Shown here in pieces: positions 9,001 to 12,000 of a stretch of 12,782 nt of DNA; the stretch's first letter is position 1, and each line of letters opens with the position of its first letter. Origin of the DNA: a virus (Duplodnaviria; Heunggongvirae; Uroviricota; Caudoviricetes); the IMG/VR virus record IMGVR_UViG_2713896781_000014; one strand, written 5' to 3'. Made by a program: the position numbers.

Positions 9001-12000
9001 GGTGACTATCATCACAGTGAAACCGTTATTCACCGTTATGGTACCGGCGCAATGGTGTTGTGCTGGCACTGCGACAACCAGCTGCGTGACCAGACATCCG
9101 AATCACTCGAGCAACTTGCTCATCAAAACCTGTCAGCATGGATGATTGACGTCATCGGTCACGCAATAAGCGGTACGCAGGAGCGTGAATTATCTCTGGC
9201 TGAATTATCCTGGTGGGCGGTCCGCAATCAGGTGGCGGACGCGCTACCGGAAGCGGTATTACGTCGTTCGCTGGGGTTGCGTGCGGAAAAAATCCGCTCA
9301 ATGTACCGTGAAAGCGACATCGTACCGGGAGAGCAGACCGCCACCATCATACTGAAGCAGCGCACAAAAAATCTTGCGCCGCTGCCTCACGCCCACCAGC
9401 AAAACCCGCCACAGGAAAAGACGGTGGTCAGCATTGCCGTTGATCCGGAGTCACCGGCTCAGTATCTCCAGCGCCAGAAACCACAACGGGAAGAGATGCC
9501 TGTATACACGCGCTGGGTAAAAACGCAGAAATGCATGACGTGCGGTAATCAGGCAGATGATCCGCATCACATCATTGGTCATGGACTGGGAGGGATGGGA
9601 ACAAAGGCTGATGATTTGTTTGTTATTCCGCTGTGCCGTAAATGTCATAACGAACTGCACGCTGGGGTAAAAGATTTTGAAGAAAAACACGGCAGCCAGC
9701 TGTTGTTGCTGATTCGTTTTTTAATGCACGCGAGAAATTCGGGTGTCCTGAAGTGGAAAGCATGAATGACTGAACGGATAGAATTTGTTTTGCCTTACCC
9801 GCCGACGGTGAATACCTACTGGCGACGTCATGGCAATACGTATTTCATCTCGGAAGCCGGAAAGCGTTATCGCCGTGATGTGGCGCTAATTGTTCGCCAG
9901 CAGCGGCTGAAATTAAACCTGTCCGGAAGGCTGGTGATAAAGATTATTGCAGAGCCACCGGATAAGCGCCGTCGTGACCTGGACAATATCCTGAAAGCAC
10001 CACTGGATGTGCTGACGCATGCCGGACTTCTCATAGACGACGAGCAGTTTGATGAAATCAATATTGTGCGCGGTCAGCTCGTTCCTGGTGGGCGGCTGGG
10101 GATAAAAATCACAGAACTGGAGTGCGCATGAATAACCACTATTTACAGTTTGTGCGTGAGCAGCTCATTATCGCCACCGCTGATTTGAGTGGGGCAACAA
10201 AAGGTCAGCTTGAAGCCTGGCAGGAGAATGCCATGTTCGATACAGGGCGTTACAGGCGAAAAAAAATCCGGTACCGCGATGAAGTGACTGGAAAAATGAT
10301 AACGCGGGATAATCCACCAATCCCGGGAAAGCAATCGCTGGCGAAGGTGACGTCAATTCCTCTGGTCAGTCCGGTTGAGTTTTCGACATCATCGTGGCGG
10401 CGGGCTGTTCTGTCTCTTGAAGAACATCATAAAGCCTGGTTGTTGTGGTGTTACAGCGGGAGTATTTGTTGGGAATATCAGATCGCGATAACACAGTGGG
10501 CGTGGAATGAATTTAATACTCAATCCGGTACCAGAAAAATTGCTGGGAAAACGCAGGAACGCCTGAAAAAATTAATCTGGCTGGCGGCGCAGGCAGTAAA
10601 AGCAGAACTTTTTGGTGGGGAAGGTTATGAATATCAGGAGCTGGCATTACTGGCGGGAGTGACAACTAAAAACTGGTCCAAAACATTTACTCGTCACTGG
10701 GTTGCAATGAAACACATTTTTCACCGACTGGATAGTGAGGCTTTATTATTTGTAATGAGAACACGTTCAAAACAAAAGGCGGCATTTTCAAAGCAAAGTG
10801 TTGCAAAAGTAGATTGAAAGGCATATATTTCATGCAAATCTGATATTTTGCCGATTTTGTACGTGATGGCAAAAGCAAACAAAACCCGCCCACAAGCGGG
10901 TTTTGTTGTGCCACTTATCTCGGATAGACATGGTGAATGCGCTGGTGGAGGAGATAAGGGTGATTTTTGTATGCTTGCAACATTGATTTCGTAACGTTAT
11001 TATCCTGCGCCCGGCCCTTTAGCTCAGTGGTGAGAGCGAGCGACTCATAATCGCCAGGTCGCTGGTTCAAATCCAGCAAGGGCCACCAACCGCCACTAGC
11101 CATCAGGAAAGAGCGTCAACCCTTTAAGTTGAGTGTGCGAGGTTCGAGTCCCCGGTGGTGGTCCATTATCGGTATTCTGCGTTGTTAGCTCAGCAGGACA
11201 GAGCAATTGCCTTCTAAGCAATCGGTCACTGGTTCGACTCCAGTACAACGCGCTACACTTATTTTCCCGGCTCGCTTTTGCGGGCCTTTTTTGTATCTGC
11301 GCCACGCCCGGCGCATACCAACCACAGAGCCTTTCGGGGGGGGGCCCCTATTAAGTTGTCAAGCATGTTATGACGCCTGCGGGGTATAAAAAGTCCCGTC
11401 GCGCATCATGGCGAACAGAACGTCGCAGCGTCGTCTCGCCAGGGCGATAAGCGCCTGATTGTGTCGTTTTCCCTGACTCATTTTGCGGGTGTAGTAAGCC
11501 CTGGAGAGCGGATCCCTGAGCGCGGCGAAGGCCGACAGGAACAACGCCCGTTTGAGAGCTTTATTACCCCGTCGCGAGGGATGCTCACCGCGTATTGACG
11601 AGCCGGATCGCCGAGTTACCGGCGCAAGGCCAGCATAAGCAGCGAGATGTGCGGCAGAGGCGAAGGCGCGGCAGGCGACCTCGGTGAGGAGTCTGGCTGC
11701 GGTCCTGACACCGACTCCGGGCATACTGGTCAGGACCGGGTAAAGAGGGTGAGCAAGAACTCGCTGTTCTACCTCAAGCGCCACCTCGTCTCTTTGCTTA
11801 CGCAGCGTGATGAGCTGGAGTGCCAGACGTGGCAGTACTACGGCAGCGGCATTCGTGCCGGGAACGACGACGGTTTGTTCGGCCAGTGCCTGAGCTATGT
11901 CTGCTGCAAGGCGTTTACCCAGACGAGGCGCAAGTTTGCAGAGCTGGGCTGCCAGCTTCTTCTCACCCAGCGAAGCGAGTTTTTCTGGTGAGGGATATCG

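Follow-up and report, generated by a model that had tools for sequence, protein, structure and literature searches.

In the ileZ-argN-argO transfer RNA (tRNA) arrays of Stx2 phages, the middle slot is held by argN, which ARAGORN calls tRNA-Arg(UCG) and which has a clean D stem. Here we describe what occupies this slot in a 12,782-nucleotide (nt) stretch of DNA from a virus of the Caudoviricetes (IMG/VR record IMGVR_UViG_2713896781_000014). We refer to this whole stretch as the window, and to the 76-nt tRNA-like gene that it carries between ileZ and argO as the middle gene (Table 1). The middle gene has the same slot and neighbours as argN, and the C1-G72/U73 acceptor, the A20 of the D loop, the T arm and the CCA are common to both. 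Its 3' strand is identical to that of F349-type argN. In contrast to argN, however, it has anticodon UUU instead of UCG and C33 instead of U33, its pairs 7:66, 27:43 and 30:40 are switched, and U12 is deleted.

A second group of described genes comes closer. These belong to a family of alleles next to ileZ that derive from argN and carry UUU and C33, and which we name Lys*. The anticodon stem-loop and the A51.C63 mismatch of prophage Lys* genes (C5F74_RS13695 in NZ_CP026939, and those of phages PhiR47_1 and vB_EcoM-606R7) are identical to those of the middle gene. The window copy differs from them in the deletion of U12 (delU12) and in U70, and it is followed by argO instead of copies of thrU and glyT. 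It is also missed both by the Prokaryotic Genome Annotation Pipeline (PGAP) and at the Rfam cut-off.

Other systems resemble the middle gene in single features. The tRNA-Lys genes of phage T5, active against the nuclease AriB of PARIS, and of phage SP15, active against PrrC170, are phage-borne and have the same anticodon as the middle gene, whose sequence departs from that of host tRNA-Lys both in the AriB site (39-41) and, at position 33, in the PrrC junction (PMC12409363, PMC11555353, PMC2610378). While the T5 and SP15 genes are canonical and their rescue of phage has been demonstrated, the middle gene belongs to a temperate lambdoid phage and combines an Arg-derived body with C33, U73 and a broken D stem. 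C33 in a normal 7-nt loop is also found in tRNA-Leu(GAG) of Saccharomyces cerevisiae, a eukaryotic, single-copy chromosomal gene that functions at little cost from C33 (PMC13492127). Finally, yeast tRNA-Pro(UGG) C70U acquired G3:U70 in a non-Ala tRNA through one transition, as in the middle gene; its mischarging has been demonstrated, while the middle gene is without the other bacterial Ala determinants (PMC5389508). By descent, the middle gene belongs to the argN family, although it falls outside the definition by Arg anticodon and is tRNA-Lys-like only in its anticodon loop. It is best classed as a phage tRNA gene in a degenerate and recombinant allelic form.

Structure and descent of the middle gene

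The middle gene genuinely derives from a tRNA and represents a damaged argN-slot allele in the Q-proximal tRNA operon of a lambdoid phage. We infer, with a probability of about 0.6, that the window copy still gives rise to a tRNA-shaped RNA that is made and processed but decodes little or not at all. Several parts of the molecule are intact. An earlier, sequence-only reading of this locus had described a good acceptor stem, a perfect anticodon stem and a TTCGAGT T loop, and all three are present at 11090-11165 on the plus strand. The acceptor stem CCGCCAC/GUGGUGG forms six Watson-Crick pairs and one wobble, G3.U70 (G at 11092, U at 11159), which was absent from that description. U8, A9, A14 and an encoded CCA, as found in the acceptor and core of canonical tRNAs, are all present. 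The T loop UUCGAGU is canonical, G18G19 are kept in the D loop, position 26 is G and the variable loop reads GUGUG.

Three features set the middle gene apart from canonical tRNAs: its D stem, its position 33 and an Rfam score below threshold. The two-pair D stem and the mismatched T stem of the sequence-only reading were both borne out. Only G10-C25 and C11-G24 pair in the D stem, short of the canonical 3-4 base pairs (bp), and the T stem contains A51.C63. The C33 and nominal UUU anticodon were likewise seen, at 11122 and 11123-11125. The anticodon arm has a perfect 5-bp stem and a 7-nt loop, but C33 stands where canonical tRNAs have U33. Apart from this U33C difference, the loop CCUUUAA equals the E. 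coli tRNA-Lys loop CUUUUAA, and it keeps 36-UAA-38, the determinant for N6-threonylcarbamoyladenosine at position 37 (t6A37). A shifted register with anticodon CUU (33-35) or an enlarged loop was ruled out, as the arm reads unambiguously, and without variation, as a 5-bp stem with a 7-nt loop.

The damage is reflected in how poorly the gene is detected. A scored ARAGORN run, suggested earlier as a check, gave a marginal call of tRNA-Lys(ttt) at the default threshold only, which was lost at -ps105. By comparison, an intact Lys* sibling survived up to 110, ileZ up to 115 and argO up to 120. The Rfam tRNA model (RF00005) scored the middle gene at 28.2 bits (E = 2.3e-4 in a 151-nt search), where the gathering score is 29 bits. 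The corresponding scores were 72.5 for ileZ, 68.1 for argO, 53.2 for a Lys* allele with U33 (locus L009), 44.4 for intact Lys* and 43 for F349 argN. In genomes with the identical sequence, PGAP annotated tRNA-Ile and tRNA-Arg and left the middle gene uncalled.

Folding energies agree in direction. The cloverleaf of the window allele was computed at -15.1 kcal/mol versus -22.3 for intact Lys*. It lies 8.2 kcal/mol above the minimum free energy (MFE) fold, compared with 2.7 for intact Lys* and 0-6.4 for relatives and genuine tRNAs in the same computation. Together, delU12 and C70U account for the loss of approximately 16 bits of Rfam score and approximately 7 kcal/mol of cloverleaf stability, most of which is attributed to the U12 deletion. 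The single-sequence MFE fold of the middle gene is not a cloverleaf (z = -1.36). As sole evidence this fold was set aside, because genuine neighbours deviate as well (ileZ by 4.5 and argN by 5-6 kcal/mol above their MFE), and the comparison of cloverleaf and MFE across alleles was used in its place.

We then turn to where the gene comes from. The middle gene is 79-84% identical to argN alleles. In the alignment to argN, argO and ileZ that had been proposed for this array, it showed 12 differences in 77 columns (84.4% identity) to argN of phage Stx2a_F349, while argO had two differences and ileZ was identical to ileZ of Stx2 phages. The changes relative to F349 argN are UCG to UUU, U33 to C, and both sides of pairs 30:40 (G-C to A-U) and 27:43. 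Identity to E. coli lysT is 57.5%, effectively no higher than to ileZ (56.1%). As the body is argN-derived and lysT is no closer than ileZ, the gene does not descend from a host lysT-type gene. The suggestion that it might be a second Arg-type gene as in Stx-phage arrays therefore holds in part: by position and sequence it is the argN homologue, but C35 is lost and the anticodon is UUU. The parallel suggestion of a suppressor-like species found no backing, as we found no evidence of suppressor activity.

An IMG/VR scan anchored on the 3' end of ileZ recovered the arrays in which Lys* occurs. The usual setting is an Ile-Lys*-Thr(UGU)-Gly(UCC) array, and the intact form is labelled tRNA-Lys by PGAP. 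In the main form, CCGCCACUAGCUCAUCAGGAAAGAGCGUCAACCCUUUAAGUUGAGUGUGCGAGGUUCGAGUCCCCGGUGGCGGUCCA, the GCUC/GAGC D stem is intact, while the CCUUUAA loop and the A51.C63 mismatch are those of the window allele, which is 97.4% identical to this form and differs by two changes, delU12 and C70U. The mismatch is found in all Lys* alleles except L009, where the pair is G-C, and a group of five loci represented by L140, where it is A-U; it also occurs in F349 argN. The 3' strand GGUGGUGG was found elsewhere among the sampled alleles only in F349-type argN and in phage Evi, where Lys* is likewise followed by argO and keeps its D stem intact. Evi, vB_EcoM-606R7 and PhiR47_1 are isolated phages that carry the intact Lys* allele.

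The two sides of the window gene have different affinities. Upstream, including the Q region, the sequence is 96-100% identical to L124, a phage with a Lys*-Thr-Gly array, while from the 3' acceptor strand through argO and onward it matches the F349-type argN array. Because the 5' side is Lys*-Thr-Gly-like and the 3' strand and argO are F349-like, we regard the window gene as a recombinant. The crossover apparently fell within shared T-arm/acceptor sequence, and U70 would have been gained from a Stx-phage argN allele. F349-type argN itself (L001 1617-1693; also L232-L237), the argN allele of several Stx2 phages, has G3:U70, U7.G66, U27.G43 and A51.C63. It has the look of a recombinant between argN and Lys* and combines the main element for alanyl-tRNA synthetase (AlaRS) with an Arg anticodon.

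Distribution and turnover of the slot

To place the window copy, we surveyed the family in phages and host genomes. With position 33 left free to be any base, a scan found C33 in 119 of 120 IMG/VR loci. In the lone exception, L009, the loop is CUUUUAU, positions 51 and 63 pair as G-C and the 4:69 pair is compensated; this allele is present in 12 complete E. coli genome records. A decay series from L009 (U33) via C33 to delU12 was considered and weakened, as L009 reads 36-UAU-38 without the t6A determinant and so is not simply a more canonical ancestor. Among 5426 complete E. coli genomes, 750 (approximately 14%) have a Lys*-family gene beside ileZ. The exact 5' portion of the window's middle gene is found in 221 of these, including O145, O26:H11 and O111:H8 strains, and is not called by PGAP. 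A further 347 carry copies that are 95-99% identical and called tRNA-Lys, and the remaining 182 carry a U8C/C4U/C11U allele that is 90-95% identical and not called. Outside Escherichia and Shigella, the Lys* family was not found among GTDB species representatives, where hits were limited to E. coli and Shigella flexneri.

The companions of Lys* have a recognisable source. The prophage Thr(UGU) and Gly(UCC) genes (L124 3165-3318) match host thrU and glyT at 100% identity and lack a tyrU between them; the host chromosomal operon is thrU-tyrU-glyT, and loci L112 and L184 keep a truncated tyrU. This identity indicates that a host tRNA operon was captured by the prophage arrays. In five loci (L140, L156, L170, L174 and L200), the thrU-derived third tRNA has UUU in place of UGU (L140 3483-3555, minus strand), with loop CUUUUAA, A73 and an Rfam score of 74.2 bits. 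This Thr-body UUU is a second, independent origin of UUU in these arrays. In the same five loci, the T stem of Lys* is repaired (A51-U63) and its position 73 is G.

The middle slot as a whole proved variable. In an unbiased sample of 114 ileZ-anchored IMG/VR arrays, it held argN-UCG in 61 cases, an insertion allele in 26, an anticodon-arm deletion in three and an argN/argO fusion in three. Intact Lys* was found in 12 of these arrays, delU12 Lys* in three, a U33 Lys form in one and miscellaneous alleles in five. ARAGORN recognised none of the insertion, anticodon-arm-deletion and fusion alleles of this sample as a tRNA. Grossly broken alleles thus occupy at least 28% of the sampled arrays, and the middle slot is generally unstable and dispensable. 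The insertion allele (for example L125 1592-1672) is 80-81 nt long; its D and anticodon region is exchanged for unrelated sequence (…GAAGAGCAGACGACACGAUAACAGGGUUGUUGG…), it keeps a T stem, CCA and an acceptor stem that is perfect, and PGAP labels it tRNA-OTHER. One argN allele, in L031, has UCU instead of UCG, giving an array with two tRNA-Arg(UCU) genes.

Constraint and drift are both visible among the alleles that keep a tRNA fold. Across 41 distinct argN and Lys* alleles, 96.3% of cloverleaf cells are paired, compared with 28-53% when the 3' partners are slid by 1-3 columns. The argN and Lys* groups are separated by switches on both sides of three pairs: 7:66 (U-A/C-G), 27:43 (C-G/U-A) and 30:40 (G-C/A-U). 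These three compensatory switches show that selection for pairing acted as Lys* split from argN, although the events are few. Within the Lys* clade, six stem changes preserve or repair pairing and six are disruptive. As a rough neutral expectation about one third would be preserving, from which the 6-versus-6 split is not significantly different. In the Ile-Lys*-Thr-Gly cassette, segregating sites number 11 in 53 free positions of Lys*, 8 in 76 of ileZ, 15 in 76 of Thr and 10 in 75 of Gly, so that Lys* polymorphism density is not clearly different from that of the neighbouring Thr gene. Within Lys*, the U8C allele is frequent.

Literature that treats argN, argO and ileZ together was not found, and a broader search returned only generic statements on Stx-phage tRNAs. 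The switch from Arg to Lys with fixed C33, the Thr-body UUU and the turnover of the slot appear to be undiscussed in the literature searched.

Decay, decoding and alternative roles

We consider ordinary decay the most likely history of the window copy, in three steps. A lineage of argN (UCG) would first have become Lys*, with anticodon UUU, loop CCUUUAA and three stem pairs re-paired. One Lys* copy would then have lost U12, leaving a two-pair D stem. Finally, recombination in the T arm or acceptor onto a Stx-type argN/argO 3' end would have brought in U70 and with it G3:U70. Of the earlier suggestion of a decaying pseudo-tRNA, the copy-specific U12 deletion and the defective prophage bear out one part, but C33, UUU and the T-stem mismatch, to which it also pointed, are traits of the family rather than of this copy.

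The RNA is probably co-transcribed with ileZ and argO, either from the promoter-like site upstream of ileZ or by Q-antiterminated late transcription. It would probably also be cut by RNase P, which would free the 3' end of ileZ 1 nt upstream. It is a plausible RNase P substrate on account of its spacing, its intact helix of acceptor and T arm, and its encoded CCA. Decoding by the product would be poor or absent, because the lesion in the D stem makes the L-shape less stable and abolishes the U12:A23 pair read by the t6A37 enzyme, and because U73 is a poor discriminator for lysyl-tRNA synthetase (LysRS) and C35 is gone. The useful decoders of the array would be ileZ (AUA) and argO (AGA), and the flanking Ile2-type CAU and Arg-UCU genes are consistent with the supply of AUA and AGA decoding that the sequence-only reading had proposed.

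Published determinants allow these expectations to be stated position by position. The bacterial t6A synthase (TsaD) reads the D-stem shape G10:C25, C11:G24, U12:A23, needs 36-UAA-38 and acts on full-length tRNAs only (PMC13276492). The window allele keeps 36-UAA-38 but has lost the 12:23 pair and, with it, the regular D stem. Lys identity in E. coli consists of the anticodon and A73, and Arg identity of A20 and C35 (PMC9976931). The middle gene has the Lys anticodon UUU but U73 in place of A73. Of the set recognised by arginyl-tRNA synthetase (ArgRS; A20, C35, U/G36), it keeps A20 but has U35. With UUU, U73 and A20, it would no longer be an ArgRS substrate and would be at best a sub-optimal LysRS substrate.

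Several observations weigh against a damaged, barely decoding copy. The anticodon loop is invariant across all copies sampled. The delU12 allele has spread beyond one clone (O145, O26:H11, O111:H8), so that it has persisted and recombined without further decay, and it occurs in a second array context, L112/L184, where Thr and a truncated Tyr gene follow. The window allele can also form a three-pair D stem with a bulged A23, at -15.4 kcal/mol. Yeast tRNA-Leu(GAG), with C33 in its natural form, is roughly as effective as its C33U variant (PMC13492127), which by analogy suggests that C33 alone need not disable a tRNA.

The alternative that survives best is that Lys*, this copy included, may be a functional tRNA-Lys that evades anticodon nucleases or acts as a decoy against PrrC, RloC and PARIS AriB; we hold this to be possible, if rather unlikely. 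With the host anticodon loop on a foreign body, it would take over Lys decoding or absorb the nuclease when host tRNA-Lys(UUU) comes under attack, and the window copy would still function in spite of its weak D stem. With six tRNA-Lys(UUU) genes in E. coli and Lys codons in common use, a Lys tRNA is not needed for rare-codon supply, which leaves the switch from UCG to UUU unexplained by that role. PrrC cuts 3' of U33 in tRNA-Lys (PMC2610378), and C33, fixed in all loci but L009, sits at this scissile junction. AriB cuts tRNA-Lys(UUU) at 40|41 within U36AAUC|A41, and U39A abolishes cleavage (PMC12409363). Lys* instead reads U36AAGUU41, with GUU at 39-41 where the host has UCA, and so is without the AriB motif. 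The middle gene therefore carries the host tRNA-Lys anticodon together with substitutions at the nuclease sites (33 and 39-41). Phages are known to escape PrrC170 and PARIS by means of tRNA-Lys genes of their own (PMC11555353, PMC12409363), and it has been proposed that mutations in the loop serve evasion (PMC10264068).

Further support comes from the family. The t6A determinant is kept in its loop, the intact allele occurs in the three isolated phages named above, and UUU arose a second time on the Thr body in five loci. AriB has two main targets, Lys(UUU) and Thr(UGU) (PMC12409363), and the pairing of Lys* with Thr(UGU) in these arrays matches them. Against this stand, for the window copy, the D-stem deletion with a cloverleaf far above the MFE, and a discriminator that is U73 and not A73. 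More generally, 54% of the E. coli family copies are below PGAP detection (221 delU12 and 182 U8C), and stem changes within the clade are not clearly above neutral. The co-resident Thr gene, moreover, is identical to host thrU and so not resistant.

A broader claim concerns the Lys* family as a whole, which might serve temperate phages as counter-defence: an Arg body re-targeted to Lys codons, either nuclease-resistant or an uncleavable decoy, at induction or superinfection. On present sequence evidence we consider this doubtful. The window allele would then be a weakened derivative, possibly with Ala-accepting character from G3:U70.

Decoding would be irrelevant if the middle gene were kept mainly as an RNase P processing element that splits ileZ from the tricistronic transcript. 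Conserved ends around a freely varying interior would then be accounted for. Closely spaced tRNAs of polycistronic transcripts are split apart in E. coli by RNase P, for which the acceptor/T-arm helix and CCA serve as recognition elements. Such a role would fit the 1-nt spacer after ileZ, the acceptor helix, which is 97.2% paired across the 41 alleles, and the perfect 7-bp acceptor stem and CCA of the 80-nt insertion and 66-nt anticodon-arm-deletion alleles. It leaves unexplained, however, the invariance of the anticodon loop and the compensatory changes in the anticodon stem. The argN/argO fusions that remove the 3' half of the middle gene exist, and the conserved ends may just reflect internal rearrangements that spare them. 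We judge this explanation improbable.

G3:U70 raises the prospect of a mistranslating tRNA, charged by AlaRS, that places Ala at Lys AAA/AAG codons, with F349-type argN placing Ala at Arg CGA/CGG codons. G3:U70 is a major AlaRS determinant (PMC9976931), and a single C70U in yeast tRNA-Pro(UGG) leads to Ala misincorporation (PMC5389508). The pair at 11092/11159 is shared, among the sampled alleles, only with F349-type argN and phage Evi. The other bacterial Ala determinants are A73, G2-C71, G4-C69 and G20 (PMC9976931), for which the middle gene has U73, C2-G71, C4-G69 and A20. In addition, the D-stem defect would limit use by the ribosome, and C70U is one pairing-preserving transition, as expected under neutrality, so that this reading is very unlikely. 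A chance cloverleaf-like fold in spacer DNA, to which the sub-threshold Rfam score, the silence of PGAP and the MFE z-score might point, can be dismissed given the clear homology of the middle gene with argN and with tRNA-Lys genes annotated by PGAP, the family covariation that supports the cloverleaf, and the presence of U8, A14, G18G19, a UUCGA T loop and CCA.

The tRNA array, its host prophage and what the slot means

Chromosomes of E. coli O145 (RM9872 among others) match the window at 100% identity, and the window also matches a defective lambdoid prophage deposited as PPompW from enterohaemorrhagic E. coli (EHEC) O145. Features of the array are listed in Table 1, where the coordinates of Q were mapped by the offset of the tRNA genes.

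Table 1. Features of the tRNA array and its surroundings in the window.
Feature	Position	Strand	Description	Basis
Late antiterminator Q gene	10128-10817	+	Phage late gene regulator Q; WP_001059384.1 antitermination protein Q	Identical-record annotation
Sigma-70 promoter-like site	10975-11003	+	TTGCAA-17-TATTAT, then GC-rich stretch	Consensus scan
ileZ-type tRNA	11013-11088	+	Anticodon CAU, canonical	ARAGORN; Rfam; PGAP tRNA-Ile
Spacer	11089	+	1 nt (A) between ileZ CCA and position 1 of the middle gene	
Middle tRNA-like gene	11090-11165	+	76 nt; argN family, Lys* branch (UUU, C33), allele with delU12 and G3:U70	
D arm of middle gene	11099-11114	+	GCCA-UCAGGAAA-GAGC; U12 absent between 11100 and 11101	Alignment with intact alleles
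Anticodon stem-loop of middle gene	11116-11132	+	UCAAC-CCUUUAA-GUUGA; C33 at 11122, anticodon UUU at 11123-11125	
T arm of middle gene	11138-11154	+	CGAGG-UUCGAGU-CCCCG; A51.C63 mismatch (11140/11152)	
3' acceptor strand and end of middle gene	11155-11165	+	GUGGUGG with U70 (11159), discriminator U73 (11162), encoded CCA	
argO-type tRNA-Arg(UCU)	11179-11253	+	Canonical fold	ARAGORN; Rfam; alignment
Intrinsic-terminator-like hairpin and T run	11269-11294 (hairpin 11269-11286)	+	Closes the tRNA operon	
ISEc20 (IS110 family)	11337-12782	-	Just past the tRNA operon terminator, running off the window end	Identical-record annotation

Q lies immediately upstream of the tRNA operon. Between Q and the promoter-like site is a 13-bp perfect hairpin with A and T runs on its flanks (10878-10907), which resembles a terminator acting in both directions and may be the late operon's tR' terminator. 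The promoter-like site ends 9 nt before ileZ and is a candidate for the operon's own promoter. The flanking genes are as had been read from the sequence, an Ile2-type CAU tRNA that PGAP annotates as tRNA-Ile and a tRNA-Arg-UCU. The spacer base A(-1) could pair with U73 of the middle gene, which could lengthen the acceptor stem to 8 bp; in other alleles, position -1 is A or G. Were RNase P to cut one position upstream of the middle gene, ileZ would be freed with an exact CCA end. In argO, the encoded 3' end is CUA (11253-11255) and not CCA, and the T loop is UUCGACU (11236-11242) and not UUCGAAU. Both changes also occur in phage Evi, and maturation of this argO would need 3' trimming and CCA addition.

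The host prophage is defective, with frameshifted genes, ISEc20 and no lysis module. According to the annotation of identical records, its exonuclease and portal genes are frameshifted. Related phages such as L124 have a full lysis cassette at the site that ISEc20 occupies here. In identical genomes, the next phage gene after ISEc20 encodes the terminase small subunit, with holin and lysozyme absent from the interval. As terminase genes follow ISEc20 without a lysis cassette, the prophage is apparently unable to lyse its host. Elsewhere in the window is a hok/sok type I toxin-antitoxin module (7633-7882), with an Rfam sok match of 103.9 bits (7633-7782) and hokD placed at about 7727-7882 in identical genomes. 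Upstream of it, at approximately 6633-7391, identical records annotate the prophage cargo gene paa (AcfC-family adhesin Paa/AdfO).

For annotation, the middle gene creates a conflict in 221 complete EHEC-type genomes (O145, O26, O111), where ARAGORN-based pipelines report a tRNA-Lys and PGAP reports nothing. The middle gene should be labelled as a degenerate allele of the argN family and not as a functional lysine tRNA. For the family, the middle slot of ileZ-argN-argO arrays is an evolutionary playground of anticodon switches (UCG, UCU, UUU), allele recombination, insertions and deletions. tRNA-Lys(UUU) is the favourite target of anticodon nucleases, which lytic phages counter with variant tRNAs. 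Because it is altered exactly where PrrC cleaves, the lambdoid Lys look-alike is a cheap and directly testable candidate. Its intact relatives, in a family found in approximately 14% of complete E. coli genomes, are possible counter-defence tRNAs; if they are inert, they would provide a clean natural example of prophage tRNA gene decay.

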